The position numbers and the translations under genes are program-made. Positions 4,622-50,381 of a stretch of 64,000 nt of DNA are shown here, piece by piece (positions within the stretch are counted from its first letter, which is position 1; each line of letters begins with the position of its first letter). Source of the DNA: a virus. A model generated the notes under the pieces. That model searched no databases and was not told the DNA's origin. It saw only the letters and a list, made by a program, of their open reading frames with translations. The DNA lies in the IMG/VR virus record IMGVR_UViG_3300044710_000137, positions 1-64,000 of that record. One strand, 5' to 3'.

Positions 4622-5103
4622 CATTTGAGCGCACGCGGGATATGGATGTGGTCCGGGAGATCATTACCCACCCCCGAATCTGGCCAAATGTTATCGACGA
4701 CTTCTCCCCGCCGCGCGAAGAGTTTCAGCCCATCGCTTCGGAATCCATTCTGTACATTCTGCCGAAAGAAGACGAGCGGGTCCTTGGCGTAATCTGTTTC
4801 GCCATGCTGAGCCATATCGTTTTCGAGATCCATCCGGTGTTATTGCCGGAGACCTGGTGGGAGTTTGGAAAGGCTAAAGAAGCCACGCTGGGCGCGATGG
4901 ATTGGATCTGGAAGAACACGGATTGCCAGCGGATTGTGGGATATGTACCCCTGCTTAGGCATCGGACTAAATTAAGGTTTCCTCCTAAATTGGGGATGGT
5001 TCAGTACGGTGTTAATCCGAAGAGTTTCTTGAAGGGTGGGGTTCTTGTCGATCAGGTCATGTTTGGCTTAAGTAGACCGGAGAATATCAAAATCAGTGTT
5101 TGA
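4618..5103 (+). CDS. P22 gp14-like (DUF2824, GNAT-fold) head assembly protein
   Basis: MTFERTRDMDVVREIITHPRIW resembles gp14 N-terminus; syntenic upstream of ejection genes. Confidence 0.75.
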   Translation: MTFERTRDMDVVREIITHPRIWPNVIDDFSPPREEFQPIASESILYILPKEDERVLGVICFAMLSHIVFEIHPVLLPETWWEFGKAKEATLGAMDWIWKNTDCQRIVGYVPLLRHRTKLRFPPKLGMVQYGVNPKSFLKGGVLVDQVMFGLSRPENIKISV

Positions 5104-5137
5104 TGCCGCGCCGGTCAGTCCTGCCCGGCGCTGGTAG
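5097..5137 (-). repeat. Family A hairpin element
   Basis: CTACCA GC-GCCGG G CAG GA CTG A CCGGC-GC GGCATCAAAC. Confidence 0.9.
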
Positions 5138-5143
5138 AAGCCT

Positions 5144-5386
5144 TCACCACACATCTTCGCTAAAAAGGGAATGCTTTCGGGTCTTGGTCTGTCCCGCATC
5201 GAACGCAAGCGCACCAGCTTGGAACCTGTCGAGAAAGTCGCCGGCATCGGTAACAAAGCCCTGCTCCTCTTGCGGAATCTTTTCCGCGCGCCCAAGATGC
5301 TTCCACACATCGCGCATGATCGCGGCGTGGCTGCTGCCGGTATAAATCCTGCCCTTGTGGCGAATAGCCGCATGCGCTACGAACAC
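5144..5386 (-). CDS. Small conserved phage hypothetical (cargo between two A elements)
   Basis: QGFVT..F.DR..A..A...GQ...LFSEDVW pattern; antisense to the operon. Confidence 0.7.
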   Translation of the reverse strand: MFVAHAAIRHKGRIYTGSSHAAIMRDVWKHLGRAEKIPQEEQGFVTDAGDFLDRFQAGALAFDAGQTKTRKHSLFSEDVW

Positions 5387-5395
5387 ACCCAGATT

Positions 5396-5440
5396 CTACC
5401 AGCGCGGGACGCGGCTGCGGCACGCGCGGCAACAACAACT
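5396..5440 (+). repeat. Family A hairpin element
   Basis: CTACCA GC-GCGGG A CGC GGCT GCG G CACGC-GC GGCAACAAC. Confidence 0.9.
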
Positions 5441-5472
5441 GATTTTCTTCTTTCACTTCCAGGAATAATTCT

Positions 5473-6384
5473 ATGGCAGCAGGCGCACTCATCGGCGGAA
5501 TAGGCAGTTTAATCGGCGGAGCTATCGGTTCAAATGCCGCCTCAACCGCCGGTGGAATCCTCGGCAACGCAGGCAACACCGCTGCCACGAATATCACCGG
5601 CGCAGGACAGACAGCCATCGGTGGCTTAACAGCTCCTACTCAATCCGCCCAGCAAGGCGTTACGCCGTACACCCAAGCCGGAGCCCAGGGCATCAGCACG
5701 CTGGCCGCCGCGCTCGGTCCAAACGGATCGGCCACCAAAGCCCTAAGCACACCGTTCAGTTTCAATCCCAGCGATCTACAGAACACTCCCGGCTATCAAT
5801 TTCAATTGCAGCAAGGCCTTCAGGCTAACAAGAACGCCATGACCGCCGGGGGATTAGGTGGTTCGGGAGCAGCCGTCAAAGGCGCGAACAACTACGCCAC
5901 GGGTTTGGCGGGAACGTACTTCCAAAACGCCTACGCGAACGCAAACAACACCTACCAGGTGAACCGCCAGAACACGCTGTATCAACTTTCCGCCTTGCAA
6001 AACCTCGCGGGAACCGGCCTCCAGTCCTCGGAGTACTCCGGCAATGTCGGATTGCAATCGGCAACTCAAGCCGGAAACTGGGGCATCGGCTCGCAAGAAG
6101 CCGCCATGCAAGCTTACATGACAGGCCAGCAAGGCGTGGCCGCGGGCGTCATAGGCAGTGCGAATGCCTGGAACCAGGCTCTCGGCGGGGTAGCAAATAG
6201 CGCAAATAGCCTGTCCTCCTTGAACTCGATGTACGGAGGGGGCGGAGTATTCGGCGGTGGATCGGGAAGTATGGGCGGGGGATGGGGTAATGATATTGCT
6301 CCTGTGATGCCTGGAAGTGGAAGCTATTCTAGTTCAACTGGGATGGGGGGAAACCCTTGGAGCACGTATAGTGGGGCTTTCTAG
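5473..6384 (+). CDS. DNA ejection protein, P22 gp7-like
   Basis: Gly/Ala-rich N-terminus, TPGYQFQLQQG motif, position after gp14-like gene. Confidence 0.75.
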   Translation: MAAGALIGGIGSLIGGAIGSNAASTAGGILGNAGNTAATNITGAGQTAIGGLTAPTQSAQQGVTPYTQAGAQGISTLAAALGPNGSATKALSTPFSFNPSDLQNTPGYQFQLQQGLQANKNAMTAGGLGGSGAAVKGANNYATGLAGTYFQNAYANANNTYQVNRQNTLYQLSALQNLAGTGLQSSEYSGNVGLQSATQAGNWGIGSQEAAMQAYMTGQQGVAAGVIGSANAWNQALGGVANSANSLSSLNSMYGGGGVFGGGSGSMGGGWGNDIAPVMPGSGSYSSSTGMGGNPWSTYSGAF

Positions 6385-6716
6385 AAAAGCAAAATCATTA
6401 TAAGTTGGTGAGCCTCGGAAGCTAAGGCCGCCAGCCTCTCACTTGGCAAATGGGTGAGCGAGTCAGTGCCGCGCACCCTTGGCCGCAGGGTTCTGATGGA
6501 CACAGGTAGCCGCACCTTCTCCACGGCGACAGGCTCTCTGTGTTTGGCGATGAAGCGCGCGGACCGCAATTGTTCTTTGCATGCCCCTCTGGGCAGGTCC
6601 GTCAGCCACTCCATCAAATCGAGAAAGTTCTCGAAGTCGTGTCGCGAGAAGTCCCAACAATCGCGCAACTCCTGACGGGTGTAATCCCGCGTCAGATCGA
6701 CGGTCTTGATGGGCAC
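6381..6716 (-). CDS. Hypothetical cargo gene between two B elements (C-terminus runs through a B element)
   Basis: Antisense ORF between ejection genes. Confidence 0.5.
   Translation of the reverse strand: MPIKTVDLTRDYTRQELRDCWDFSRHDFENFLDLMEWLTDLPRGACKEQLRSARFIAKHREPVAVEKVRLPVSIRTLRPRVRGTDSLTHLPSERLAALASEAHQLIMILLF
6406..6490 (-). repeat. Family B element
   Basis: TGGTGAGCCTCGGAAGC..GGCAAATGGGTGAGCG..GCCGCGCACCCTTGGCCGCA. Confidence 0.85.
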
Positions 6717-6773: not shown

Positions 6774-6853
6774 ACCAGCGGAAGCGTCACGCCACCCAAG
6801 ACGCGCTCAGCTCCGAGAGTCACGCGCGATCACCAGCAATTCAAAGCTCACAA
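6774..6853 (+). repeat. Family B element (ACCAGCGGAA subtype)
   Basis: ACCAGCGGAA..GCTCAGCTCCG..AAAGCTCACAA; similar to 28761 copy. Confidence 0.7.
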
Positions 6854-6880
6854 GCTAAGCATCATTCAAAAGGACCCACA

Positions 6881-8902
6881 ATGGGCGGATACGCAACCAT
6901 CCCTCTATCAGGTATTGCTCCTCAAATTCAAACTCCAACTCAAGCTCTACAAGGAGCCGCAGGAGTAGGAAGCACAGTAGCGGATACCCGTCTGCGTCAG
7001 CAGCAGGCGGAACAAATCGCGTTACAGAACCAGCAATTGCAAATCCAGTTGCAAGGCCAGCAGGCCATGACGCAGGCCTGGAGAAACGTCAACGGCCTCG
7101 GTCCTGGAACATCCGATGGATCGCAGGCCCCCGTGACACCACAACAGACCCCGCCCGTTGCCGCGGCAGCACCCACAACTCCAGGGCAGCTATCCGGCGC
7201 GCCCGTGCCTTTATCCGCGGTACCGGGTCTCACCACGCCTGTACCGACCTCGATGGCGCCCTCCGGCGCAGCTCCGGCCGGCGCGATGCCGCTTTCCCAG
7301 GAAGCCTCGACCATGGGTCAAGGTGCTCCCGCTCCAGCCCTACAAGGCGCTCCCATGCAAGCCCCTCCTGGCCAGCCTCAGGGCGCTCAGGCCCCAGCAG
7401 CTCAACCCACAAAGCCCATCACCACGGGCGCTCCCATAATGGACCGCTGGTTCGCCGAAATGCAAAGGCTGGGCGTCCCTCCCCAGATGATTATGGCGGC
7501 CCAGACCAACACCGTCAACTACCTGAAGGACCGCGCCGCGCTCGACGCCGACACACTGAAAAATAGCGCCGCGCAACACGACATGGCCTCAGGTGCGTGG
7601 ACCTCGTTCGCACAGCAGCCCATCGACTATAAGGCGCAAAACGAACAGGATTTCGTGAACAACCAGGTGCGCCAGGGTAATATCACGGTGCAACAGGCGC
7701 GCAACTTGGGAAGCCTCTATTCTCCCAATATGACCCCGGAACAGGAAAAGGCGGCGGATCAAAAATTCAACGCGATCGCCAGCCTCTACCTAAGCGCAAG
7801 CCAATTGGACCAGCGTGCCGAGCGGATGGGCACCGCGGCCCGCGGCCAAGGTTATGCCGCCGAAGCCGCCCTCAAACAGAACCAGGCCGAAAACCAGCAG
7901 GCCGCGGCGACGTTCCCGAGCGATCCTACCCAATTACCGCAATACCTCAGCTCGCAACCCTCCCGGATTCAAACCATGCTGGCAGGCAAATCCTACGCGG
8001 ACGCCAACGCCATCATGCAGAGGATTGCCCTGCCGCCGGCGGATTACGCCAAGCAGGTTCAACAGCAGACCGCCGCCGATTGGGATCAAGCGCTGAAAGC
8101 CGCGAAGGCCGGTGAATCGCAATACAATACGGTTCTCCAAAAGCTCGCCATCACTAATCCCGACGTCCGCGCCAATCTCCCGGATACGTGGGATCCCAGT
8201 ACGCCCAAGAAGGTGCTCGATCTCGCATTGAATCCGGCGCAGAGTCAAGCGGCCGGCAATCAGGACGCCAACCGCGACCAGCGCGCCGATGCCGCTGCCG
8301 ATCGGGCGCAAGCCGCCGCAGAGCGTGCCGAACGCTCCGGCCAACCCACGCCGTACCAGATACAGCAGGAAACCCGCCAAGACCTCGCCGCTAAGAACAA
8401 AGCCGACGCCGCAGCACTGACGGCCCAGAACCTCAACCGGCAATACAGCATCGCGGCCGCCACGCCCTCCGGAGCCATCTACCGCGACCCTAAAAGCGGC
8501 GTTCAGCGGACCATGCCGCCAAACGACGACAAGGGAACCAATACAGTGAGAGAGGGATTACTGGATAGCGGCGAAACCGCACGTCAACAGGCCGAAGAAG
8601 CGCTGGCTACCTCTAATGAACTGCAAGCCAAGCATGGCTGGGGCAAGTACGGCGCGCCTCCGTCGCCCACTCCGCCTACTCCAACCACCCCTCCTACCCC
8701 TACTCCCACCCCAACAAAGCCGCCGCAGGGCAGCGCTGCTTCAGCAACAGGCACGCCAAGGCCTGGGGCGCAGCGCGGCGGTCCGCAAGGACAGAACGCC
8801 CCTCCAGCCAGCGTTATCGCCAAAGTAGCCGAGGGCCAAACTTTCTACGGCCCGGACGGTAAAGCCTGGAAGAAGGTCAACGGTAAAGCCGTCGCCCAAT
8901 AA
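6881..8902 (+). CDS. DNA ejection protein, P22 gp20-position
   Basis: 673 aa Gln/Ala/Pro-rich helical protein between gp7-like gene and giant gene; AAGGA SD. Confidence 0.65.
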   Translation: MGGYATIPLSGIAPQIQTPTQALQGAAGVGSTVADTRLRQQQAEQIALQNQQLQIQLQGQQAMTQAWRNVNGLGPGTSDGSQAPVTPQQTPPVAAAAPTTPGQLSGAPVPLSAVPGLTTPVPTSMAPSGAAPAGAMPLSQEASTMGQGAPAPALQGAPMQAPPGQPQGAQAPAAQPTKPITTGAPIMDRWFAEMQRLGVPPQMIMAAQTNTVNYLKDRAALDADTLKNSAAQHDMASGAWTSFAQQPIDYKAQNEQDFVNNQVRQGNITVQQARNLGSLYSPNMTPEQEKAADQKFNAIASLYLSASQLDQRAERMGTAARGQGYAAEAALKQNQAENQQAAATFPSDPTQLPQYLSSQPSRIQTMLAGKSYADANAIMQRIALPPADYAKQVQQQTAADWDQALKAAKAGESQYNTVLQKLAITNPDVRANLPDTWDPSTPKKVLDLALNPAQSQAAGNQDANRDQRADAAADRAQAAAERAERSGQPTPYQIQQETRQDLAAKNKADAAALTAQNLNRQYSIAAATPSGAIYRDPKSGVQRTMPPNDDKGTNTVREGLLDSGETARQQAEEALATSNELQAKHGWGKYGAPPSPTPPTPTTPPTPTPTPTKPPQGSAASATGTPRPGAQRGGPQGQNAPPASVIAKVAEGQTFYGPDGKAWKKVNGKAVAQ

Positions 8903-11900
8903 TGCCTGCCGAACTGGGCGAAGGCTGGACGCTCGACGATTCGGCGTCCACCCCTCCCGCCTCACCAACACCCCCAACGCGCGCCCCGTCTAAGCCCCCT
9001 GCCGATCTCGGCGGTGGCTGGACCTTGACGGCGCCAGCTGCCCGCGCATCGTCCGGAGATCTCGGCGGTGGGTGGAACCTCGCTCCTCCATGGCCCTCTA
9101 TTGACCAAGCCGTCAGGATGCCGAGCGCTGCGAGCATGCAAGCGTCGATGGAGCAGGCGGAGCGTGATGCGTCAGAGGAAGGGGGCGACCAGCCGGCCCC
9201 TCCAACACCTACAAATATCCCTGGTGGAATTGCTTCCATCCCTGGCGGAGCCTTGCCTGGAATGCCCTCGCCAGCGGTTCCAGGACTCACCACGCCATTT
9301 GTCGGACACGGCATCGGCGGCGACTATCCCATCCCCAGCGGGCAAATCGTACAGGAACCATTCGAAACTATTCCGGCGCTCGAAACTATTGGCCGTGGTG
9401 TCACCCGGATGGCGCAGGCCACCCCGACGCCGACACATGCCGCAAATCCGAAACAAACCGCATTGGGCTTGAGCGAAGTCCTGGGCGGCACGATGCAGGC
9501 AGTCGGCCCCCTGGCCATCCCTGCGGGACTCGTCGCAGCCCCCGCAGAAGCAGCCATCTCGCTGGGCGCCGGTATCGTCGCCCGAACTGCCACGCCTGCA
9601 TTGCTCAAGAAAGCCGGAGTAGCGCCCGAATATGCGGACCTGGCGGGCGACGTCGCCGGTCTCCTCGCGGGTTACGCCGCTGGGCATATCCGTCTATCGC
9701 CAGAGCAACAGAACCTCATTGAAGTCCTCCAGGGTAAGGATGCGCCAGGCGCGGGCATTGAAGATCCCCAGGTCAATCTTCTACGCAACATGGTGGACCG
9801 CGGCGGAACTGAAGGCGAACGAGCTGCAGCGCAAGGGGCTCTATTCCGCAAGTTCGGTATCAAGTACGGACCCGAGGATCTTTCCGGCACAGCTACGCCT
9901 GAACAATCCCCCACCCCACAAACTGCCCCTACCCAGGAACCAGCAACCGGCGCGGCCGCGACGGGTGCGGCACCAACATCTAATGTTTCTCCTGAAGTTT
10001 CAACATCTCCAGTAAAGTTTTCTAAAGGTGAAGTCTATACCAACACTCAAGGAGAAGCCGCCCATATTACCCAAGTTTCACCAGATGGAACAAAGATCAG
10101 TTTTGAATTAACAGTACCAGGAGTGATAAAACCCTTAAAGCTGGATTGGCCTGTTGGGAAATTTCAGATGAGGATGGGATTAACTCCTCGAGCTGAAGCC
10201 CAAGAAGAATCAGGTGTTAATGCCGCGCCGGCCGTCCCGTCCGTCGCTGGTACAACCGTTCCCCAGCCGGGCGCCGTTGCGGATTCCAACGCCGTACCGA
10301 CGCTGCAAACACCCCCGCCAACGCCCACACCTACCGCGAATTCCCAGCCGGTGCAGGCGCCCCCAGAAACCGCAGGCGCCATACCTCCAACTCAACAGAA
10401 TCGACAGGAAGCGCAGCCCCTACCGGCAATTACCGGGCAGGAAGGTGCCGCCCAGCTACCGCAAATTGCCACGGCGCCCGAGGGTCTACCAGCACCAGAC
10501 GCGGCTGCGGCTGGTGCGGCAGCAACACCTAAATTTGATTACGCCTCCACTCAAGTAAACCTTCCTTCTTCAATAGCTAACAGCGTCATCTACTTTGGCG
10601 AAACCATCCCTGCAAAGATCCTTGCACCTGAAGCTGGTCATTCTACTGCTGGAGAAACAGGTTCCACGGGTAGAGAAACAGAACCACACATCACCATCAA
10701 ATACGGCCTTCATGATGAAGATCCTTCCGCCGTTCAGGAAATTCTGAAGAACGAAGGCCCCATCACAGCCACCTTAGGCAAAGCCTCCATCTTCAACACC
10801 GACGACAGCGACGTTCTCAAAGTGGGCGTGGAATCCCCGGACCTCCAACGATTGAATGGCCTGGTTAGCCAACTGCCTCACACGGACACCCATCCGACTT
10901 ACGAACCCCACGTGACCATCGCTTACCTGAAAAAAGGCGAAGGGGCGAAGTACGACGGAAAGAGCATTCCAGGGGTCACCGGACAAACGGTATCATTTGA
11001 TGCTGTCCAGTTCTCGGACAAAAATGGGCAACATACTGCCATTCCGTTGGCAGGAAATGGACAAGAATCAGGTGTTGATGGCGCACCAGCCACAGCCGTG
11101 TCCGGTGCTGGTAGACCCTCCGGCGCAAGCCAGCAGTTGCCTCATAGCCTCACTGGAGCGAAGCCACGCTATAGCTACGGCGCACGCCAGTATGATTTGG
11201 AGTTCGCCGACGATCTCGACAAGGCAGCCTACATCACTGCGCAAGACAAGCGCTCGAAGCATGACGCCGACTACCTGAAATGGGCGATGGGCCAGACCGG
11301 CGGATCCGAAATGGACGTGCGCCAAGCTGGCGCGAACGTGCGCCATTTTATCAAGGACCTGGCCAAGGCGAATTCGGATGCCAGATCCGGCGAGACGCGC
11401 TTGGACATTCCGGCACTGGCGCGCAAGATCTTGTCGAAGCCCACCACGGCCGCTACGGTTGTACCAGCCGGGGGCGCGCAGCCGACACCGGCGGCAGCAA
11501 CATCAAATGCTTCGCCTGAGCTAACTCCATGGAGAGAGCTATTTGAAAGATACATTACCAATGGAGCCTCTGAAACTGAAGCAAAGATTCTCACCGAAAG
11601 AAGGCTAGGAAAAGAACCAGAAAGCCAGAAAGCACGAAAGCCAGAAATCGTTACCCCACCAGCCCCGTTGACTCCTCCCGTAAATGAGAGCATAGTAGAA
11701 CCGGGACTACCCAATGGAACCCCAAGTTCAGAAGCTCATCCAGAACTGGCAGCGCCAGAATCCGGAGGCGGTGAAGCGAATGCGCCAGAAGGGCAACCTG
11801 GAGAGCTTGGCCCTAGCAGCCTTGAACCGGCAGGCGGAAGTACTGTCGAGCCTACTCCAGAAGGGAACGCCCCATCTGGAAGCGCAGGAGCTGGCGAACG

Positions 11901-23725: not shown

Positions 23726-23998
23726 ATGACCGATAACGCGAAACGGCGAGGGGGCGACGGGGTGAACCGGCGAAGCCTTACCGAAAAGCGGTACACCAAC
23801 ATCCTCGATGCCATGGCGATCACGCACAGGATGGTCGAGATTCTGGACAGCCGCGTGAAGATTCTTGAGTCTCTAGTCCCGCGCATGGAATGGCTCGACG
23901 ATCAAATAACCACCTACCTCTCTAAGCAGGATCCAGCGATCCGGCGCGGAGCGACGGGCGCGGCATCAAACCCAAAAGACTTGAAAGGTGGAAATTAA
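23726..23998 (+). CDS. Hypothetical protein
   Basis: GGAGGT SD, first gene after the promoter. Confidence 0.65.
   Translation: MTDNAKRRGGDGVNRRSLTEKRYTNILDAMAITHRMVEILDSRVKILESLVPRMEWLDDQITTYLSKQDPAIRRGATGAASNPKDLKGGN
23931..23972 (+). repeat. Family A hairpin element
   Basis: ATCCA GC-GATCCG G CGC GGA GCG A CGGGC-GC GGCATCAAAC. Confidence 0.85.
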
Positions 23999-24686: not shown

Positions 24687-25040
24687 ATGACCATCGTTAT
24701 CCGAGGCTTCATAGGCCAGAAGTGCGTATTCGAAGACACCCTGGACCTGGACACCCAAAAGGAATTAGAAGCCATCATCCCGCAAATCGCCACCAAACAC
24801 GCGGAGCTGCTCATGGACTCACCGCACATGATCGAAATGGAATTCCTGGACGATCCCGACCCCGCCTCCCGATTCTTCCGCTTCGGCACCGATCCACGCG
24901 GGATGGTGTTGCCTGTCGAACTAAACCTGCCGCCCTCGCCCGAGGGTCTACCAGCAACCGGCGCGGATGCGACGGGTGCGGCAGCAACGACTGAAGATTT
25001 TAATGGTGGTGAAGACGACACCGAACGAGGGAGGCGCTGA
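24687..25040 (+). CDS. Hypothetical protein
   Basis: AGGAGG SD; HMIEMEFLD...RFFRFGTDP. Confidence 0.65.
   Translation: MTIVIRGFIGQKCVFEDTLDLDTQKELEAIIPQIATKHAELLMDSPHMIEMEFLDDPDPASRFFRFGTDPRGMVLPVELNLPPSPEGLPATGADATGAAATTEDFNGGEDDTERGRR
24948..24989 (+). repeat. Family A hairpin element
   Basis: CTACCA GC-AACCG G CGC GGAT GCG A CGGGT-GC GGCAGCAAC. Confidence 0.9.
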
Positions 25041-25425: not shown

Positions 25426-25466
25426 ACCCAGCGCGGGACGCGGCGGCGGCACGCGCGGCATCAACC
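25426..25466 (+). repeat. Family A hairpin element
   Basis: ACCCA GC-GCGGG A CGC GGCG GCG G CACGC-GC GGCATCAAC. Confidence 0.9.
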
Positions 25467-27198: not shown

Positions 27199-27561
27199 AT
27201 GAAAGCAAAAAGCAAATCAGGCAAATCAGTTGTTGATGCCGCCGGGGTCACGCCAGTGCCCCCGGCTGGTAGAACCGCACCGTCGCTTAAAGAGGCACCA
27301 CCCTTTACTAGGGCGCAGAAAGACGAGGTGCTGCTCCTTGTATTCAGTATTTTATCCGCGGCTCACGGAATTGTGGAGGCGGCTATCGAAGACCGGGCTA
27401 TTTCGGCACATGACGTCGAGTCTTACTACGGCACTTGGACCGAACTACTCTGCACGGTGGACGGCGGCTATTATCAGGGTAGTTTGCTACGCGGCGATCT
27501 CTTCGACGACATCGAAGCCCGCTGCTTTCCTGGTGTGAAAATCAAAGGCGGCCCAGAATGA
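27199..27561 (+). CDS. Hypothetical protein starting with A-element-encoded peptide
   Basis: MKAKSKSGKSVVDAAGVTPVPPAG shared with 27908 gene. Confidence 0.6.
   Translation: MKAKSKSGKSVVDAAGVTPVPPAGRTAPSLKEAPPFTRAQKDEVLLLVFSILSAAHGIVEAAIEDRAISAHDVESYYGTWTELLCTVDGGYYQGSLLRGDLFDDIEARCFPGVKIKGGPE
27231..27272 (-). repeat. Family A hairpin element
   Basis: CTACCA GC-CGGGG G CAC TGGC GTG A CCCCG-GC GGCATCAAC. Confidence 0.9.
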
Positions 27562-27911
27562 CGCGTCTCACCAAGCCCGTCAAGCGCGAGGCTGCCACCG
27601 GGAGCCACGGCGGCAAGAAGTACAACCCGGAGGCCTACTTCCTTGAGCAATGTGGCTGGCGCATCGCTGCGAACGGCCAGTGGCTGAAACAAGGCTGGTA
27701 CTTCACCGCAGATGAAGCTATGACCGTGCAGGTCGCGCTGGATGGCGGTGTGCTGAAATACCTGCCTCTGAAGCGTGATGCCACGCCGATCATGCAGCAC
27801 AAGATTCGGGCCATCACCGAAGCCTGCCGAAAGCCGGAACCAGCGGCGGACACGGCCGTGGCCGACGCAGCTCCAAACAATAATCTTCCTGAGAAGCGAG
27901 GCCCAGAATGA
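27558..27911 (+). CDS. Hypothetical protein
   Basis: MTRLTKPVKRE N-terminus shared with 28221 gene. Confidence 0.6.
   Translation: MTRLTKPVKREAATGSHGGKKYNPEAYFLEQCGWRIAANGQWLKQGWYFTADEAMTVQVALDGGVLKYLPLKRDATPIMQHKIRAITEACRKPEPAADTAVADAAPNNNLPEKRGPE
27838..27878 (+). repeat. Family A hairpin element
   Basis: ACCA GC-GGCGG A CAC GGCC GTG G CCGAC-GC AGCTCCAAAC. Confidence 0.75.
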
Positions 27912-27940: not shown

Positions 27941-27980
27941 GTTGATGCCGCCGGGGTCACGCCAGTGCCCCCGGCTGGTA
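27941..27980 (-). repeat. Family A hairpin element
   Basis: Identical core to 27231 copy. Confidence 0.9.
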
Positions 27981-29220: not shown

Positions 29221-29945
29221 AAACGCGTAAACCGTGCCCCGGATGCGGACAAGTCATCCATGGCAGGGAGGCTGAGAAGGTTTGCGTCGATTGCCGCCGC
29301 GCGATCGATAGTTGGAACAAACATATCGCGACCATTAAGGCTGCGCCGGATCAGTGCATGGTCTTACTGAAAGGCGTCTATCACTGGTATCCGATGTTTT
29401 ACTTCGGCGGACCGCGATGCAGCATTTTTGAACTGGACGAGATGCGCGGGGAACTTGCCGAGTTTTTCGAGGAGTTAGCGACGCGGCTATGCTCCCATAT
29501 TGTGGAGTGGCAGGACGCGAGAGGCGAGAAACCTGAAGAACTATTTCCGGTGCCCGACGTGCGGAAGCCGCTAAAAACCGGCCAAAACTACGCGGAGCCA
29601 GTCGGATATCCAGCCACGCATGGGGAAAGTAGCTACCACGATAAAACGGGCCTGATCGACCGCCGCAACCTGGAGCTACTGCGCGGACTCTGGGACAGGA
29701 CCGCCCGCTTTACGGATCTCGCCTACATCGCAGGATTGACCGACGGGCGCAATCTATTGCTGCAACTTTCAAGCGGTGCGCTGTCCGTGGACGATCTCCA
29801 GGAACACGACGTCAAGGTGGCGAGAGACCGCCAGAACGCCGCGTACCTGCACCGGAAGCTCAAGGGGACGCCCAAGCGCACTCGGCAGAAACCAGCGGCC
29901 AACACGGATGTGGTGGACGCGGCATCGACATCAAAAGATTTGTAA
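29217..29945 (+). CDS. Hypothetical protein with N-terminal Zn ribbon
   Basis: CPGC...CVDC; coupled start. Confidence 0.7.
   Translation: MKTRKPCPGCGQVIHGREAEKVCVDCRRAIDSWNKHIATIKAAPDQCMVLLKGVYHWYPMFYFGGPRCSIFELDEMRGELAEFFEELATRLCSHIVEWQDARGEKPEELFPVPDVRKPLKTGQNYAEPVGYPATHGESSYHDKTGLIDRRNLELLRGLWDRTARFTDLAYIAGLTDGRNLLLQLSSGALSVDDLQEHDVKVARDRQNAAYLHRKLKGTPKRTRQKPAANTDVVDAASTSKDL
29891..29930 (+). repeat. Family A hairpin element
   Basis: ACCA GC-GGCCA A CAC GGAT GTG G TGGAC-GC GGCATCGAC. Confidence 0.85.
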
Positions 29946-30349: not shown

Positions 30350-30703
30350 GTGAAAGAAGAAAAATCAGTTGTCGATGCCGCCGCGGTCGCCTCCACGCCC
30401 GCGGCTGGTAAAGGCGAACGCTGGTCGGGATCTGTGCAGGTTTGTCTTTTTCGCACGCATGACGATTCCGGCATCCGTATTGAGGTGTGGCTGAAAACCG
30501 AGGGCAACTGGAAGTTATCCTCGGACACCGACCACACCTGGCAGTCCCTGCATTGCCTGATCCACGAAGAACAACGCGAGGCGGGGCAATCCTCTGCCGC
30601 ATCGCCGACGGCCTATTGGAAGCTGAACGCCATGGAACCAGCGGCCAACACGGATGTGGTGGACGCGGCACCAACACCTAAACATTTGAAAGATGAACCA
30701 TGA
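30350..30703 (+). CDS. Hypothetical protein beginning and ending in A elements
   Basis: SVVDAAAVASTPAAG ... PAANTDVVDAAPT. Confidence 0.55.
   Translation: MKEEKSVVDAAAVASTPAAGKGERWSGSVQVCLFRTHDDSGIRIEVWLKTEGNWKLSSDTDHTWQSLHCLIHEEQREAGQSSAASPTAYWKLNAMEPAANTDVVDAAPTPKHLKDEP
30371..30410 (-). repeat. Family A hairpin element
   Basis: TACCA GC-CGCGG G CG TGGAGG CG A CCGCG-GC GGCATCGAC. Confidence 0.85.
30637..30676 (+). repeat. Family A hairpin element
   Basis: Near-identical to 29891 copy. Confidence 0.85.
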
Positions 30704-30927: not shown

Positions 30928-30970
30928 CTACCAGCGCGGGACACGGATTGTGGCCCGCGCGGCAGCAACA
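30928..30970 (+). repeat. Family A hairpin element
   Basis: CTACCA GC-GCGGG A CAC GGATT GTG G CCCGC-GC GGCAGCAAC. Confidence 0.9.
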
Positions 30971-32605: not shown

Positions 32606-32907
32606 TTCAGTCCACCTTCAGAAGTATTCGGTGTTGATGCCGCTTCCGTCGCCGCGGCGCCGGAAGCTGGTAGAACCAGTTCGGGTTCGCCTCCGACGCC
32701 CCTGAGTGCTTCGAGTACCGCTGCAGCTATGCCTATAGCGGGGGAACGGTCGGTATTGTTGATGGCCGGCTTGAATTCCGCCTGGACATCCACACCGCCC
32801 CCTTCTACGTCGCTGATGGTGAGGGTGAAGGTGATGCGTCGACCAGCCGCAGGCACGGCGGTGACTGCGGCGGCATCAACAACTGATTTGCCTTTTAATT
32901 TTCGCAT
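32602..32907 (-). CDS. Hypothetical protein beginning and ending in A elements
   Basis: KSVVDAAAVTAVPAAG ... LPASGAAATEAAST. Confidence 0.6.
   Translation of the reverse strand: MRKLKGKSVVDAAAVTAVPAAGRRITFTLTISDVEGGGVDVQAEFKPAINNTDRSPAIGIAAAVLEALRGVGGEPELVLPASGAAATEAASTPNTSEGGLK
32633..32672 (-). repeat. Family A hairpin element
   Basis: CTACCA GC-TTCCG G CGC CGCG GCG A CGGAA-GC GGCATCAAC. Confidence 0.9.
32842..32880 (+). repeat. Family A hairpin element
   Basis: ACCA GC-CGCAG G CAC GGCG GTG A CTGCG-GC GGCATCAAC. Confidence 0.9.
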
Positions 32908-33954: not shown

Positions 33955-33991
33955 GTTTGATGCCGCGCCGGTCAGCCTGCCCGGCGCTGGT
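33955..33991 (-). repeat. Family A hairpin element
   Basis: ACCA GC-GCCGG G CA GGC TG A CCGGC-GC GGCATCAAAC. Confidence 0.9.
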
Positions 33992-35983: not shown

Positions 35984-36268
35984 TTAAATTTCTCCTGGAG
36001 TGCCTGAGGGATTTGGTGTTGCTGCCGCGCGTGCCGCAGCCGCGTCCCGCGCTGGTTCCTGCCATCGGACAGTGGGCGGATTAGTTCTGATGTCCAGCAC
36101 CCACCAGTAACCGCAGGTTTGGCACGTAGCCCGCAGCGACATACCGTACCTAAGTACTGGACCGCAACCATTTGGACAGTTGCGGGCATCCCAGACGATA
36201 TCGCTTTTACCAGCCGGGGGCGCGGCGGCGACACCGGCGGCATCAACAACTGATTTTTCTTGGCTCAT
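35984..36268 (-). CDS. Zn-ribbon protein beginning and ending in A elements
   Basis: KSVVDAAG..CPNGC..CQTC..PARDAAAARAA. Confidence 0.55.
   Translation of the reverse strand: MSQEKSVVDAAGVAAAPPAGKSDIVWDARNCPNGCGPVLRYGMSLRATCQTCGYWWVLDIRTNPPTVRWQEPARDAAAARAAATPNPSGTPGEI
36018..36056 (-). repeat. Family A hairpin element
   Basis: ACCA GC-GCGGG A CGC GGCT GCG G CACGC-GC GGCAGCAAC. Confidence 0.9.
36208..36247 (+). repeat. Family A hairpin element
   Basis: TACCA GC-CGGGG G CGC GGCG GCG A CACCG-GC GGCATCAAC. Confidence 0.9.
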
Positions 36269-38133: not shown

Positions 38134-38170
38134 GTTGCTGCCGCGCCGGTCAGCCTGCCCGGCGCTGGTA
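38134..38170 (-). repeat. Family A hairpin element
   Basis: TACCA GC-GCCGG G CA GGC TG A CCGGC-GC GGCAGCAAC. Confidence 0.9.
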
Positions 38171-40009: not shown

Positions 40010-40050
40010 CTACCAGCGCGGGACGCGGCGGCGGCACGCGCGGCATCAAC
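40010..40050 (+). repeat. Family A hairpin element
   Basis: CTACCA GC-GCGGG A CGC GGCG GCG G CACGC-GC GGCATCAAC. Confidence 0.9.
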
Positions 40051-43647: not shown

Positions 43648-43661
43648 TCTTTCCCTTTTCT

Positions 43662-43744: not shown

Positions 43745-43878
43745 TTATAACAAGATTACCGGCACATCCGGTAAAGGCGCTCCTTACAGTAAGGAATCCA
43801 GCGCCGGGCACAGGGCTCCAACAACAACGGTCCACTCCTACCGTTGGGAGTCCTGTCGCCTTCCAATAATTCTCACTT

Positions 43879-45242: not shown

Positions 45243-45574
45243 AAAACTATGAGCGTGCCGCACATTTTCACCCAGCGATTCACGGGATCGGTCGTTGTTT
45301 GCTACTCGGTCTCGCATACTGAGCTCGACTTCGCGCGGGACATACCAGCGCTGCTTTTGAATGTTTTCGATCTGCTGGATGCTCTTACCAGACATTTTAT
45401 CTATCCACCGCCGACGCGCGAGCAAAGGAATGCGTATTACGACGCGGTAATGAATCAACGGCCGTGTCATCCACCGCTAAAGGCTCCCTGGCCGGATCGC
45501 TCCGAACAAATCCTTCCGGAGCCCATTTGGACGAACATCCACGCCGAGGACTACGAAACCATATTCGAGCGCTG

Positions 45575-45979: not shown

Positions 45980-46100
45980 AAGTGAGTGGCTATCGTCCCC
46001 CCGTCAGGGGATGGTCCGCGATGGCCTTTACCGGCGGTATCCTACCCCGATTATAGGACTTCCGCGCACGAATCAAATTCTGGGATCATCGGTACGCCAC

Positions 46101-46400
46101 ATGGAAAAACCCACGTTGACGAGCCTTCCCCCACGGCAGTTGGCGATCGCGCGCCTGGTGCATCAGGGTCTGAGCAACGAGCAGATTGGGATTGATCTGC
46201 AGATCCAGCGTTGCACGGTCACCACCCAGCTGCACAGGATCTACGAGACGCTGGGTTTGGTCTGCCGGCAATATCCGAGGATGCGGTTGGCTCTCATCAT
46301 CCAGGAACACGAAAATGCGACGGCTAAAAACTCTGATCTTCAACTGCCTGCTGCTGCTTTGACTGGTGGCGGCATGAGCATCCCGATGGAGCGAGTGTGA
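46101..46400 (+). CDS. LuxR-type HTH protein
   Basis: LPPRQLAIARLVHQGLSNEQIG..L.I...TV.TQL..IY..LG. Confidence 0.8.
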   Translation: MEKPTLTSLPPRQLAIARLVHQGLSNEQIGIDLQIQRCTVTTQLHRIYETLGLVCRQYPRMRLALIIQEHENATAKNSDLQLPAAALTGGGMSIPMERV

Positions 46401-46404
46401 CCGC

Positions 46405-46893
46405 TTGAGGGAGACAATTTCGTTTTTGGCTAATCTGGCGCTCTGCAAGCTGCAGAACGACATTGGCGGCCACCTCGTATTAGCGGAGTTTCCCGATCCG
46501 CCGGCGCCCCCGCGGTACGACCTCAGTCCACTCGGCCGGTATCTGGGCCAGTGCATGATAACCACGGAGCTCAAGGCTTTGTGGCAACTGCCGGCGAGAC
46601 GCGAGAACCTGGAGTCCTCCTGCAGGACCGCGCTGTCGGATATAGTGCGGGACCTCCGCTCGATCACCGAGGCGGACCCCGGCTGTCCCGAAGAAGGGTG
46701 GGACGACAAACCGAACTTGCCTCAGATGCAAATCGTCTTCGCCCGACCGGCGATGACGGGCGAAGTGGAGCAGGCTATCTGTTCGGACCGCCAGGCAGGC
46801 ATCGCGCTGCGCGCCACTCGCATGAATGAAGACACCATCGCCATAGCCGTGAATTTCGGCGTGCGACGGCTTCTCCAATGCCGATTCGAGTAG
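46405..46893 (+). CDS. Hypothetical protein
   Basis: Fills gap between LuxR genes. Confidence 0.5.
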   Translation: MRETISFLANLALCKLQNDIGGHLVLAEFPDPPAPPRYDLSPLGRYLGQCMITTELKALWQLPARRENLESSCRTALSDIVRDLRSITEADPGCPEEGWDDKPNLPQMQIVFARPAMTGEVEQAICSDRQAGIALRATRMNEDTIAIAVNFGVRRLLQCRFE

Positions 46894-46897
46894 AACC

Positions 46898-47320
46898 ATG
46901 CAATACCTGACCACGCGCCAGCTTGCGGTTGCCGAATGCCTCGGGCGCGGTTTACGCAATAAGGAAGTGGCTAGTGAGCTAGGCTTGACCGAAGGCACGG
47001 TGAAGGTCTACATCTCGTACATCTTCACTAAACTGCAGATCGATTCGCGGCTGAAACTCGGCCTATTATTTAACGCCGGCGAATTAGGAGTCTGGCCGGC
47101 ATCCGAACCGAAGCCGAAGCGGGCATACGCGACCCGCGCGCAAGTGGCCATCACAGCGAATGAAACAGGCGCACTTCGGCCGTTGCGGCTTACTGTTCGC
47201 GGTCCGTTGACGGAAGTCGATAAAAAGTGGGATCGCATCTTCGACGAGAAGTTTGCGGACCCAGCTTACTACGTCCAACCACCTACGGTATCCGTCGGCT
47301 CGACCCTAGGCCGCGCATAA
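46898..47320 (+). CDS. LuxR-type HTH protein
   Basis: LTTRQLAVAECLGRGLRNKEVASELGLTEGTVKVYIS.IF.KL. Confidence 0.85.
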   Translation: MQYLTTRQLAVAECLGRGLRNKEVASELGLTEGTVKVYISYIFTKLQIDSRLKLGLLFNAGELGVWPASEPKPKRAYATRAQVAITANETGALRPLRLTVRGPLTEVDKKWDRIFDEKFADPAYYVQPPTVSVGSTLGRA

Positions 47321-47425
47321 TACGTCGGAGCCCGAGGAGACGGAACCCTGCGGTTCCTTCCCCTCGAACCCCTTCTTCCCCTATAACCCAACACCGAGCA
47401 CCCAGCACCCTCAAAGGATTTCCTC

Positions 47426-49343
47426 ATGTCCAACGCAGTCCGCGGCCGCAAGAAAACCGGCCTCAAACCCGTGCCGAAAGGCAAGATGACCCACATGCAC
47501 GTGCGCCGCATGGATAACGGAGGCTTCACCGTCGATAGCGACCACGAGCTGCCGGAGAAGAAAAGCATGACCAGCAAGAAGGCCATGGGCAGCGCCATGG
47601 GTTTCGGGCCGTCCACGGAGTCGCATTCCGCGAGCTTCACGGGCCCCGACGATGCCCTGGCGCACGTGGGCCAGTTGATGGCGTCCGGACCGCCCAGCCC
47701 CGAGGCTCCCCCAGCTCCGGCCGGCGGCGCGCCCGCGCCTGGCGCGACCGACAGCACCATGCCGGAAGGCGAGTAAAACGGTGAGCCCCGAAGCCAACGA
47801 GATCGTCGCGGCGCTTCGTGCGGCCGGGCAGCGGGCACGCCAGGATGTCACCACTATCCCGGCGTATCGGATCACTCCGGACCGCTTGCGCTCGATGCGG
47901 CAGCAGTATGAAGTCGCGGAAGTATTGCTGGAAGACGATACCGAAGCCTTTCTTATTACAGCGTGGGACGTGCAGCGCGCCAGACCGCTCGCGCGGATCT
48001 TCGTGCTGAAGCCTGAAAATGCCTGAAACTATACCAGCCACCAGCCACCAGCCACCAGCCACCGCCTCACTGGCGAAGGCCGTGGCCGACCACATCGACG
48101 AACGCCTGGAGGGTCAGCCCGCGCGCTTCAGCGACAAGCCGCTGCCCGGGCGGAAGATCCGGCAGATCTATCGGCTGGAGAAGATGGGCTGGCCCGCGGC
48201 CCCGCTCGACGCCGAGTCCGCCGCCTTCGCGCTGAAGGTAGCCGACGACCTCGCCGGGCAACTACTCACCGCGATTAATCGCAACCCCGGCTGTGAATTG
48301 GTTTCGTGGGCGGGAGAGATCCCGCGCAGTATCGCGGAAGCGGACTTTCACAACGGCAAGACCACCTCCGTGCGCGTCTTGGGCAATCACGATATTCACG
48401 AGAACTGCTTTCTGGTGCGCTTCGACGTGATCTACCGGATGGTGAAACTGCCTCCGAAGAAGGTATAGAAATGGCCATTAAAATCAAGCCCAGCCATAAG
48501 GGCATGCTTCACGCCGAACTTGGAATCGCCTCGGATAAACCGATCCCCCTTTCCCGCATCGCCGGCGCTATGAAGAACGCCGGTCCCAAGGAAAAGAAGC
48601 GCCTCGTCTTCGCGGAGAACGCACGCAAATGGAAGCACTAACGGCGAATGGATTTACAGTGCCACTGACTGGCGCTGCGGGCGGCGTCGCGGGCGCTAAC
48701 GGCAGTGGCGGCTGCACCTGCGGCTTGACGACGAACATCTCATGCCCAGTCCACGGCATCCGCTACGACTCTTGGACATACACCCAACAAGTTCCATACT
48801 CGACCGAGAAGTGGGGTTTTTGTCCCTCCGACGGGCACAAGCTCGATACGAACTGGAAGTATTGTCCGTCCTGCGGGAGGGCTATAGGCACGATGCAAAC
48901 CACTTGGCCGCAGATCGTCCTCTACAACGGGACGCACAACCAAGGCGCGGATTAGGCTCCGCACCCAACATCACAAAAAAGGAAGAATGACGAAACAACA
49001 GGCAACGAAAGAACTGGGCGCGCAGACGCATCGCGTGGCCTATCTGGAGCAATTACTCGAGGAGGCTTTCGCGGACCGCGAGAAGTTGAGCGACGGCGTG
49101 GAGTCTTACAGCCGCCGCGCGGCCTACGCCGAGTCGTGCTTTAAGAAAGCTGAATGGCAGAATGGGGCACTCAGGGAGCAGGTAAACCAATTGAACGCCC
49201 AGAATCAGCAGCTCGCCAAGGACAACCTCCAGATGAAGAACAACCTGGACGTGTTCCGCAACCGCTTCGTCTCGCGCCAGATGGACATGAAGAGCGAAGC
49301 GCTCTTCTGGAACATCGACATCCAGTCCCTAATCAAGAGCTAG
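47426..49343 (+). CDS. Run of small hypothetical genes (47426-47776, 47781-48026, 48019-48468, 48471-48641, 48629-48955, 48987-49343)
   Basis: Contiguous co-oriented ORFs; includes a basic IKPSHKG..FAENARKWKH protein and a Zn-ribbon protein. Confidence 0.65.
48033..48064 (+). repeat. Heptamer tandem array
   Basis: (ccagcca)x4 ccg. Confidence 0.85.
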
Positions 49344-49906
49344 GGCGCGGTCTTCTCCGCGGTCTTCTCCGCTGGCTTCTCCTCCGCGATTTCCTTGATT
49401 TCCACACACAAAGGCGTGACTGCGGCCATAAATTCTCTTGGTTTCGCCTTGGCGACCCGAATCCAATGCTCCGCGCCAATCAACCCGTTCGCCTGGTCAA
49501 AGTTGCGGAATCCATGCTCGGCTCCCTTCTGTTGCTCTTCCGTCATTGAATTACCTCGCTTTGAACGGGCGCGGCGGGTGTGGTCTCACCGCGCCCATTG
49601 GTTAGGGCTCAGTTAAACGCCGGTACCGGCGCCGCCGGCGCGCTGCGTTTGCGGCCAGACTTCGTTGACCAGATCCACCAGGATGCTGGGATTCTCGCTC
49701 TGGTTCACGTAGATCGACGCGGCCATGACTGGCGTAAGGTCCAGCGTGCCGACGCAGAAGTCGATCAAGTTGCCCGTGGGTGGGGTGGTGCGGAGCACTT
49801 TACGGAAGGCGTCGATGTTCGAGCCGATCCGTCCATACACGGATTGCGCTGCATCCGTTGTCAAATGCAGGGTTCCAGTGCAGTACTGGATGAATTTTTC
49901 TTTCAA
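49340..49906 (-). CDS. Two small antisense genes (49340-49546, 49613-49906)
   Basis: GAGGT / AGGAGGT SD sequences. Confidence 0.6.
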
Positions 49907-49957
49907 GTTGATTTGGTACCTCCTGACTTGAACTATAGCGCTTCCAAAGATTTATAT

Positions 49958-49995
49958 GTTGATGCCGCGCCGGTCAGGCCTGCCCGGCGCTGGTA
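49958..49995 (-). repeat. Family A hairpin element
   Basis: TACCA GC-GCCGG G CAG GC CTG A CCGGC-GC GGCATCAAC. Confidence 0.9.
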
Positions 49996-50339
49996 GAACC
50001 GTCCCAATGAAAATTCTGTCAGGGTCCGCTACAGTATGTGGAAATAGGGTATACCGCGATAGCGGCGATCTCTTCGCCCTGGACTTGCCCATCCGCCTCT
50101 CGATCAATAACGACGCCTGCACACTACCGCCAAAGACCACCACGGCTTCGGAGCATCGCATCGTCTGGGAGGACCACGGGGTTGTCACGGTGTCCAGGAT
50201 CCCCCCGGCCGGCGCGCCGATTTACTGGTGCCAGATGCGTCCCTCCAGATGGCGCGATATCGCCTCGGGCCTGGTCCGCGCGGTCTTCTCCGGACTAGGC
50301 GCTTTTCAGGGAAATTGACGCCCGCCACCCGAATGCTGG

Positions 50340-50381
50340 AACCAGCGCGGGACACGGCTTGTGGCCCGCGCGGCATCAACA
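50340..50381 (+). repeat. Family A hairpin element
   Basis: ACCA GC-GCGGG A CAC GGCTT GTG G CCCGC-GC GGCATCAAC. Confidence 0.9.

Follow-up and report, generated by a model that had tools for sequence, protein, structure and literature searches.

Phage genomes are mosaic, but the sequences at their points of exchange are seldom visible. Does a short hairpin that recurs along the genome of one uncultured phage mark such points? The window analysed here is the first 64 kb (64,000 nucleotides, nt) of a single 84,545-bp virus record, IMGVR_UViG_3300044710_000137 (hereafter G000), which represents a phage genome of about 84.5 kb; the sequencing runs that contain its DNA are labelled soil metagenome, and it encodes a P22-like portal and coat. 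A first-pass annotation, made from the letters alone, had described in this window a family of hairpins of about 40 bp, family A, with invariant flanks and a covarying stem. In the reading favoured here, to which just short of an even chance is given, family A is a strand-specific structured phage repeat like the repetitive extragenic palindromic (REP) sequences of bacteria, one that moves or recombines where modules meet. The element seems to be a phage equivalent of REP repeats not described before, and it marks points of gene swapping.

A strict pattern, ACCAGC-N15-35-GCGGCANCAAC, matches 17 times in the window and not once in 100 shuffles, and a pattern with a shorter right flank matches 23 times against a shuffle mean of 0.41 (maximum 2); one match of the latter, at 18887-18921, is absent from the covariance-model results. 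The covariance model (R1), built on 54 distinct copies from G000 and its relatives (alignment A1), finds 28 copies in the whole genome, of which two lie in the last 20 kb beyond the window and 26 inside it; the latter score 46.9-73.9 bits, and the next best match in the window 14.5 bits. The earlier count of 26 is thus reproduced, and the six copies cited with it are all present where they had been placed. Scores are bimodal, at 42.9 bits or more, or at 32.6 bits or less. As had also been described, copies lie on both the sense and the antisense strands of genes, and both orientations occur (17 plus, 11 minus in G000). Among the relatives, the model finds nine copies, plus two weak ones, in G001 (a complete phage of 87.7 kb), seven in the fragment G002 and one in the fragment G003 (17 in total), together with 19 copies on 13 short metagenome contigs, four of these copies being on contigs that repeat G002 or G003 sequence. 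G001-G003 were found by the stricter pattern search; a loose-pattern search of IMG/VR returned at least 117 stretches, and a fuzzy rescan placed a real copy cluster in L027 only, among the matches listed.

The core folds into a hairpin of 11 bp with a loop of 4-5 nt and two fixed purine-purine mismatches. Across A1 (54 rows, 11 pairs), 92.9% of the 594 cells pair, compared with 73.1% after shuffling and just 25-50% when the partners are slid; double changes occur at seven of the 11 pairs, in 115 cells, and none of 500 shuffles is as good. The N5/N5' arms come in 28 distinct pairs, so that the claim of arms that vary while pairing is kept is borne out. RNAalifold independently predicts the same 11-bp hairpin, and eight copies folded singly all give it, at -13 to -15.7 kcal/mol as DNA (z -2.8 to -4.5). 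The apical stems (CGC/GCG, CAC/GTG and CAG/CTG) and the mostly G-initiated loops were likewise found in A1 as first described. The internal mismatch, reported as a purine-purine pair swapped in tandem, is G.A in 35 of the 54 rows and A.G in the other 19, never A.A or G.G; as the two positions are 12 nt apart, this anticorrelation indicates that the two bases touch. The second mismatch, an A.G at the base of the stem, is present in 53 rows.

Which strand folds had been argued partly from G.T pairs. These prove to be rare: among the 48 rows in register, sporadic arm mismatches comprise 28 G.A or A.G, two C.C, two A.C and only two G.T. The strand assignment itself was right, and it rests on the purine-purine pairs (54/54 and 53/54 rows for the two mismatches) rather than on G.T, because the complement would carry pyrimidine-pyrimidine oppositions at these mismatches; thus, it is the ACCAGC...CAAC strand that folds. 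With DNA parameters this strand is the more stable in all 54 copies (mean -12.2 compared with -8.9 kcal/mol for the complement), and with RNA parameters in 30 of 54, with 21 ties. Copies in antisense orientation are no less intact than those in sense (mean 65.4 and 64.0 bits), which fits a signal that is independent of the direction of transcription. Selection of the hairpin as a structure, on the ACCAGC...CAAC strand, is supported.

The full element is about 60 nt long; a profile of 42 copies is conserved between positions of about -8 and +13 relative to the core. Its left flank reads (GGTTCT or ..GGA)ACCAGC, and its right flank GCGGCA-N-CAAC-A-N-C-T-R-A, followed by a T-rich, G-poor tail; A stands at +6 in 41 of the 42 copies, and G is rare 3' of the core. 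These flanks are invariant and mostly unpaired. Pairing of the GTT of the left flank with the terminal AAC was considered as a general feature and rejected, as it is possible in the GGTTCT class only. In 21 of 42 copies, judged by eye, CAGC is preceded by CTAC (GTAG on the other strand), with C at -2 in 21/42 and T at -1 in 26/42. Past +13 there is no sequence consensus, but a compositional halo extends on the CAAC side only. Its GC content starts at 0.40 over the first 25 nt, rises to 0.48-0.49 as far as 75 nt and is back to about 0.57 by 125 nt; CpG falls to 0.5 per 25 nt against 2.5 genome-wide, the opposite side being flat, and G on the element strand to 0.18-0.21 against 0.28. The halo is found even inside a giant open reading frame (ORF) at 8902-19095, with a GC content of 0.39-0.48 and 1-4 CpG per 100 nt against 0.60 and 10.6 (for instance in about 100 nt 3' of copies: 9978-10215, 10527-10630 and 11502-11600). 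At the single site (n=1) with a copy in G000 but not in G001, the first 99 homologous bases have a GC content at third codon positions of 0.42 in G000 and 0.58 in G001. Target preference, selection for an unpaired flank or a local mutation bias could each produce such a halo.

The 28 copies of G000 sit at junctions of genes and of protein domains and form four groups. The N-terminal quarter of the giant ORF contains five, in alternating orientations and all in frame. A further 14, found by script, and two, found by eye, are in sense orientation 16-88 nt 5' of the next start, most of them overlapping the last codons of the preceding gene. Five are antisense and begin 21-33 nt past a start codon, in genes that open with a Lys/Glu/Ser-rich stretch and then read the element backwards. 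The last two are at other junctions (5099, 30930). The script also listed same-strand ATGs after four other copies, which are regarded as uncertain; because the ORF caller accounts for only 77% of the genome and is unsure of small genes, counts based on its calls are conservative.

Inside ORFs, one fixed frame is used per orientation, and Ala/Pro/Gly linkers result: sense copies are read xxA-CCA-GCN, or (L)PA...AA(S/T)T(P)K, and antisense copies GTT-GAT-GCC, or VDAA...PxAG(K/R). Each of the eight copies in the giant ORFs (G000 and G001 together) has 36 or 39 nt and keeps the frame open; this is only suggestive, since a length divisible by three is found in 73% of all copies. Copies of 37 or 40 nt number 12, none of them in a giant ORF. 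Four of these 12 belong to G000, and in three (5099, 30930, 49958) the CTAC end provides a TAG stop. Could the element then be a shared N- or C-terminal peptide, or a linker, selected as protein? The same peptides do recur at protein ends and between domains; nevertheless, this explanation is scarcely credible, as one DNA element, read on its two strands, yields both peptide types, several of the copies (64130, 79875, 5099) do not code for protein, covariation of paired columns contradicts it, and the G.A/A.G swap has no protein logic.

The giant ORF encodes 3397 amino acids (aa) with a 2H/Acb1-like phosphoesterase domain and SNF2/helicase domains. Its counterpart in G001 (37126-51687) has 4853-4854 aa; the helicase cores are 82% identical and the 2H/Acb1-like domains 55% identical, whereas the surrounding modules differ, with family A copies between modules. 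Hairpin promoters of the N4-type virion RNA polymerase were considered as an explanation and dropped because the giant ORF shows no polymerase family and does not encode an RNA polymerase. No close relative was found in deposited phages by megablast with the giant gene, the portal protein has only distant P22-like matches there (at most 38% identity), and a search of IMG/VR with the coat protein gave no match.

Comparison with relatives shows what happens at the copies. Three G000 copies, at 5398, 36018 and 64130, have one and the same 34-nt core between unrelated flanks, and this core recurs unchanged in G001, G003 and the contigs L158 and L181, where the flanks are poorly conserved or unalignable. 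Relative to contig L199, G000 has an extra 557 bp at 24937-25493, in which a gene of 117 aa stands between two elements (E-gene-E), lying exactly where two L199 genes overlap as TGATG; the upstream G000 protein (gene 24687-25040) has an element-coded tail that its L199 homologue lacks. In G003 (L153, about 4985-5182), an in-frame insert after a family A copy encodes a CxC...CxxC zinc-ribbon and is closed by a 19-nt repeat of the right arm of the copy plus the usual 3' tail. G001 is without a copy at the site orthologous to 10488, before the 2H domain.

Gene order is permuted at elements as well. Between G002 and G000, homologous structural genes stand in different order, each with a family A or B/C element just 5'. 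The B/C family consists of elements of about 85-100 nt that start with the same (CT/CA)CCAGCGGAA and end in ..AAGC(T/C)CACAA(G/C)C-CTAAAAGA-like tails. At one orthologous start, G002 has a family A copy and G000 a B/C element of about 100 nt, which begins with the same CTACCAGCG and by eye ends similarly, in ..CACAAC-TCCTAAAAGA. Seven of the nine listed B/C copies (not 31987 or 43663) lie a few tens of nt 5' of a + strand gene start, several without a Shine-Dalgarno sequence by eye. The element length of about 60 nt, the polarity to gene starts, the in-frame translation, the cassette indels that coincide with copies in relatives and the replacement by B/C at an orthologous junction all go beyond the first-pass annotation.

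Copies also form inward-facing pairs, with their ACCAGC ends inside and 150-570 nt apart; seven such pairs are present in G000 and others on three short contigs. The cargo of 11 pairs, compared mutually, consists of small ORFs or domains without homology at E <= 1e-3. An eighth G000 pair, 38134-/40012+, is about 1.8 kb apart and brackets a recombinase gene. Inversion between inward-facing pairs was considered and rejected, since in the two giant-ORF segments checked (10252-10487 and 11113-11462) the frame after inversion contains stops. No RNA run turned up among those containing the sequence. Contigs of two DNA runs on 23,001-43,000 break at repeat copies, and as the sides of the joints listed are 20-59 nt long and inside repeats, they are uninformative on rearrangement.

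The bracketed gene (38953-39633, -) encodes a short tyrosine recombinase (226-239 aa) that is conserved in G000, G001 and G003. The element would, in an integron-like system, be a folded single-strand site, an analogue of attC, at which this enzyme moves gene or domain cassettes. The attC sites too are described as folding strand-specifically, with unpaired or extrahelical bases and with conserved ends rather than conserved arm sequence, and as flanking promoterless cassettes. Family A keeps its structure while arm sequence is free, has fixed unpaired or mismatched bases and conserved ends, and forms E-gene-E units that are present or absent between relatives. Nevertheless, an integron-like system is improbable. 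No integron-type integrase was found, as the recombinase matches the integron integrase model TIGR02249 at 37.3 bits (cut-off 265) over its last 42 residues only, and it has an Xis-like neighbour, as in an ordinary lysogeny module; in G001, where it lies at about 8 kb, no copy is closer than the one at about 35 kb. Moreover, cassette orientations are mixed, copies are translated within genes, and the empty junction in L199 is without an element. The polarity of the R and L boxes of attC is opposite to that of the family A terminal triplets, as far as a comparison of the consensus by eye goes.

In another view, A and B/C together are the recognition ends of a so far undescribed cassette-exchange system of phages, integron-like in its use of folded single strands, for both genes and protein domains. 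This is unlikely, but it would account for the assembly of the 3397- and 4854-aa virion proteins: the fixed phase per orientation and the flexible Ala/Pro linker would permit in-frame module fusion, much as phase-matched introns do in exon shuffling. The G.A-bearing hairpin would then be the handle for a phage or host enzyme, for instance the small tyrosine recombinase, or endonuclease VII on the extruded fold.

Excerpts of two sources (PMC2839356, PMC4122927) describe the PeSL cassettes of T4-type phages as small repeated stem-loops that separate genes and are concentrated in plastic regions, where relatives show indels and replacements; they consist of sigma-70-like promoters joined to effective terminators, and they act by homologous recombination. 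Family A likewise bounds indels and replacements between relatives, and 19 of its 28 copies are concentrated in an accessory-gene region at 23.9-40.1 kb. Could it be such a linker, whose conserved sequence merely gives homology for recombination and whose hairpin is a terminator? Little credence can be given to this. A consensus scan of 23,000-41,000 for sigma-70 promoters and terminators did not place any of the 19 copies there among its 10 promoter-like or 17 terminator-like sites, and there is no sigma-70-like promoter and no T-run beside the stem. In contrast to PeSLs, the arms of family A are variable, which reduces homology between copies, and the copies lie inside ORFs and in both orientations. 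Finally, the fixed G.A pairs and the covariation indicate a recognised fold, not homology alone.

The closest likeness is to REP and REPIN repeats. These are imperfect, GC-rich palindromes of just 20-40 bp that occur many times in a genome, in either orientation and frequently as inverted pairs; their arms vary with pairing kept, and they have a conserved unpaired GTAG tag. Excerpts of PMC3733652 place the tag 'at one end' and the repeats at gene ends and sometimes in ORFs, where they can supply a TAG stop, as the family A copies at 5099, 30930 and 49958 do. By contrast, family A is carried by phages and was not found as a host family in the genomes searched, no RAYT gene is present in the four phage records, the inverted pairs are 150-570 nt apart and enclose genes, and a long conserved 3' flank is accompanied by the one-sided AT-rich halo. 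Furthermore, the tag of family A is only partly conserved and stands 3' of the hairpin on the GTAG strand. REP tags stand 5' of the hairpin, on the opposite side.

Invasion of the phage by a host REP/RAYT or other host repeat is very improbable, even though a CTAC (GTAG) tag precedes half of the 42 copies by eye and REPs can both lie in ORFs and supply stops. The strict pattern, run on 185,579 species genomes, gave single matches in 42 stretches, of which 41 have no hairpin by eye. The sole true bacterial-genome copy is on a 2.6-kb contig of a 3.9-Mb metagenome-assembled genome, in which the covariance model finds that one copy. In 150 further genomes of the same class, the model (36-150 candidates scored per genome, under strict filters) gave one match, in G022, which was rejected because it is coding sequence rich in Ala and has no ACCAGC flank. 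When one copy was compared with 50,697 phage records by blastn, only partial GC-rich matches came back, covering at most 49% of the query. The Rfam search proposed in the first-pass annotation gave no match for family A: at gathering thresholds the whole window has two tRNA matches only, and at E <= 5 the stretch 27,000-33,000, with nine copies, has just two unrelated weak matches.

Two further systems are worth comparing. Rickettsia palindromic elements, of about 100-150 bp and in a bacterial genome, are inserted in frame in protein genes and translated. Family A resembles them in behaviour only: it is read in frame (8/8 giant-ORF copies; the tail of gene 24687-25040), but its core has 36-40 nt, and its copies, carried by a phage, keep one polarity at the junctions where they sit. 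Excerpts of PMC3733652 mention repeats lying in frame in ORFs and, for the Rickettsia elements, a CGTC tag. The ends of IS200/IS605, in excerpts of PMC6006769, have subterminal imperfect hairpins beside short conserved single-stranded motifs and are recognised on one strand of single-stranded DNA; in contrast, family A is a single hairpin and does not form distinct left and right ends, and the four phage records have no Y1 transposase gene.

Taken together, a selected one-strand fold, mostly unpaired invariant flanks and intact antisense copies point to a structure-plus-flank signal on a single strand, as in REP/RAYT, the ends of IS200/IS605 and attC. The sites at junctions, the translation as linkers, the identical cores at unrelated loci and the cassette differences, in turn, favour a REP-like mobile or recombinogenic element. 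The hairpin forms on the ACCAGC...CAAC strand only, as the mismatch chemistry and the energies show. By this account, the repeat would need a protein to recognise it; the folded molecule would be DNA, and most probably a protein reads the single-stranded or extruded fold beside the sequence-specific single-stranded flanks. Copies would be spread or exchanged within and between related phages, and may survive only where they are harmless, that is, between genes, at protein ends and between the domains of giant proteins. Because many junctions carry A or B/C elements with alike ends, these elements may act as joints at which genes or domains are inserted, lost or reordered as cassettes.

Several observations weigh against a mobile or recombinogenic repeat. 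No target-site duplications were seen by eye in the printed flanks of the copies, and the compared relatives offer no clean empty site; where a copy is absent, the adjacent linker differs too. Loss of collinearity at copies does speak for shuffling, both flanks being collinear in a relative for 4 of 22 informative copies compared with 134 of 310 random sites, but random sites rather than gene junctions are a lenient control, given here without a formal test, and the breakpoints of phage mosaics fall at gene boundaries anyway. The Y1/HUH family (PF01797) is absent from G000-G003 at E <= 1, while it was found in 10 of 14 control genomes; a host-encoded enzyme would lie outside this search. There is no candidate enzyme either: a Pfam census of 124 further ORFs of G000, beyond nine proteins examined earlier, has the small tyrosine recombinase, HNH, PD-(D/E)XK and endonuclease VII proteins, none of which is tied to the element. 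As for the structure, copies in one genome are kin, so that the shuffle statistics overstate independence, the slid-partner control being unaffected, and energy models handle G.A pairs just roughly. Outside the giant ORF, 14 of 23 copies have a called start within 100 nt on their CAAC side, and one of 23 has one on the opposite side; random placement gives 3.2 +/- 1.7 (maximum 10 in 2000 trials). This strong polarity toward gene starts could equally mean a role in gene expression. Family A and B/C copies also lie directly 5' of structural genes, several without a Shine-Dalgarno sequence by eye.

Such a role, the main rival to the favoured reading, is possible, if doubtful. An mRNA junction element would consist of the sense hairpin and an unstructured A/U-rich, G-poor tail, making an intercistronic module 5' of the next start codon; it could insulate or enhance initiation, stabilise or process polycistronic RNA, or be a landing site for a UpxY-type paralog of NusG. 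As for the antisense copies, they would have arisen as by-products when cassettes were exchanged, or would clamp the initiation region on its downstream side. Besides the sense copies upstream of same-strand starts (14 by script and two by eye among the 23 outside the giant ORF, at 16-88 nt) and the five antisense copies just past start codons, the B/C elements with alike ends before + strand structural-region starts and the AT-rich, CpG-poor and G-poor stretch on the start-codon side only are in keeping with this idea. So is the conservation in G000, G001 and G003 of a NusG-like protein (41296-41865, +; UpxY antiterminator family, 103.9 bits against a cut-off of 100), which is matched by just 4 of the 50,697 deposited phage records. 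Nevertheless, eight copies (30930+ being excluded as ambiguous) are antisense to their own or adjoining gene and are conserved as well as the sense copies; in antisense RNA the purine-purine mismatches turn pyrimidine-pyrimidine. In addition, five copies lie with their halo deep in the 3397-aa ORF, which has no need of a start there. Among the 19 copies in 23-41 kb, not one is like an intrinsic terminator or a sigma-70 promoter, and Rfam has no match at E <= 5 in 27,000-33,000.

The two readings do not exclude each other, to judge from REPs and PeSLs, and a role in mRNA stays alive because of the polarity to start codons, the A/U-rich tail and the UpxY-type antiterminator. The first-pass preference for a single-stranded DNA or cruciform signal over an mRNA structure holds in part: a fold selected on one strand, intact antisense copies and invariant, mostly unpaired flanks speak for it, whereas 14-16 of the 23 copies outside the giant ORF are sense and upstream of starts. 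In G000, one junction per about 3 kb bears the same folded, strand-specific signal, which also joins domains inside giant proteins. If the element is mobile or recombinogenic, it would be a tractable model of modular exchange in phages, would extend REP- and attC-like biology to viruses and would suggest a natural route to in-frame domain fusions. If it is an RNA junction module, it would be an uncatalogued and very frequent class of phage cis-regulators, perhaps with a connection to the NusG paralog that the phage encodes. In both cases it makes a useful marker for annotation, as ORF callers will misplace starts and stops there.

Table. Family A copies of the window and listed B/C elements of G000. 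Scores are bits from the covariance model; family A cores have 36-40 nt.
Feature	Position	Strand	Bits	Core (nt)	Context
A copy	5099..5135	-	63.6	37	Between stop of ORF 4609-5103 and ORF 5171-5503, antisense to both; faces 5398+ inward
A copy	5398..5436	+	70.9	39	Sense; in frame near C-terminus of ORF 5171-5503; ATG of gene 5473-6384 36 nt downstream
A copy	9939..9977	+	69.4	39	Sense; in frame in 3397-aa ORF, aa 346-359
A copy	10216..10251	-	59.9	36	Antisense; in frame in giant ORF, aa 439-450
A copy	10488..10526	+	71.6	39	Sense; in frame in giant ORF, aa 529-542; directly 5' of 2H/Acb1-like domain; orthologous G001 site without copy
A copy	11074..11112	-	63.6	39	Antisense; in frame in giant ORF, aa 725-737; directly after 2H domain
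A copy	11463..11501	+	61.0	39	Sense; in frame in giant ORF, aa 854-867; similar copy at like G001 position
A copy	23932..23970	+	46.9	39	Bulged-A subtype, sense; C-terminus of ORF 23726-23998; ATG 23999 28 nt on
A copy	24950..24988	+	69.2	39	Sense; C-terminal tail of gene 24687-25040 (L199 homologue without tail); repeat 1 of E-gene-E insert
A copy	25427..25465	+	63.9	39	Sense; ATG 25494 28 nt on; repeat 2 of E-gene-E insert
A copy	27232..27270	-	65.6	39	Antisense; in frame, 33 nt past ATG of gene 27199-27561
A copy	27839..27877	+	58.2	39	Degenerate (right flank GCAGCT), sense; C-terminus of gene 27558-27911; ATG 27908 30 nt on
A copy	27941..27979	-	60.5	39	Antisense; 33 nt past ATG of ORF 27908-28255; 74 nt at 96% identity in common with 27232 copy
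A copy	29891..29929	+	56.3	39	Sense; C-terminus of gene 29217-29945
A copy	30371..30409	-	65.9	39	Antisense; 21 nt past GTG of gene 30350-30703; faces 30637+ inward
A copy	30637..30675	+	59.5	39	Sense; C-terminus of gene 30350-30703; ATG 30700 24 nt on
A copy	30930..30969	+	64.9	40	Convergent junction; TAG in CTAC end stops minus-strand ORF 30928-31452
A copy	32633..32671	-	66.5	39	Sense for minus-strand gene 32602-32907 (C-terminus); next minus-strand ATG 27 nt on
A copy	32842..32880	+	70.0	39	Antisense; 27 nt past ATG of minus-strand gene 32602-32907
A copy	33956..33991	-	60.7	36	Sense; ATG of minus-strand gene 33725-33922 33 nt on
A copy	36018..36056	-	65.0	39	Sense; C-terminus of small minus-strand ORF; next ATG 37 nt on; core identical to 5398 and 64130
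A copy	36209..36247	+	73.9	39	Antisense; 21 nt past ATG of small minus-strand ORF that also holds 36018 copy
A copy	38134..38169	-	64.5	36	Sense; ATG of Xis-like gene 37575-38045 88 nt on
A copy	40012..40050	+	72.0	39	5' of gene 40122-40553; with 38134- brackets small tyrosine recombinase gene
A copy	49958..49994	-	66.8	37	About 52 nt 5' of called minus-strand gene 49613-49906; TAG stops plus-strand ORF 49580-49996
A copy	50341..50380	+	67.3	40	Sense; ATG 50397 16 nt on
B/C copy	6775-6875				Window
B/C copy	28762-28860				Window
B/C copy	31987-32080				Window
B/C copy	43663-43760				Window
B/C copy	59921-60020				Window
B/C copy	72525				G000 beyond window (L258 8525)
B/C copy	74590				G000 beyond window (L258 10590)
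B/C copy	75551				G000 beyond window (L258 11551)
B/C copy	77178				G000 beyond window (L258 13178)
B/C variant	6391-6492	reverse			
B/C variant	20445-20546	reverse			
B/C variant	22998-23091	reverse			
B/C variant	53238-53339	reverse			
B/C variant	63709-63802	reverse			

Around these copies, the Pfam census gives some idea of the gene content of G000. It comprises a PD-(D/E)XK nuclease, HNH, DUF968, DnaJ and VanY; three GerE and two sigma-70 region-4 proteins, besides the NusG-like protein; and the tyrosine recombinase, GroES, split terminase domains and endonuclease VII. The Xis/MerR-like gene (37575-38045, -) adjoins the recombinase region, near the UpxY-type gene, and in G001 and G003 the UpxY-type and tyrosine recombinase genes are kept near each other. 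The large terminase is found in two ORFs 6.7 kb apart, at 44514-45242 (Terminase_6N) and 51915-52703 (Terminase_6C), both of which match one 524-aa open frame of G001 (2385-3956); the block of small ORFs between the halves contains the family A copies 49958 and 50341.

Of the two Rfam tRNA matches, the one at 23479-23593 (-) spans 115 nt for a 71-position model and is not called by ARAGORN, and that at 40711-40783 (+) is called by ARAGORN as tRNA-??? with a two-base anticodon. Lastly, runs of heptamer-like repeats of the CCAGCCA/CCACCAG type (families D10, D13, D14 and D16) are present in forward orientation at 647-695, 1299-1347, 1953-2001, 48016-48064 and 58982-59030 and in reverse orientation at 40552-40604, 61174-61226 and 62525-62577, with more at 41867-41912, 47387-47418 and 55902-55933. 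Several of these runs stop a few bases 5' of an ATG, or directly follow the scaffold-region ORF 60112-61170 and the coat gene.

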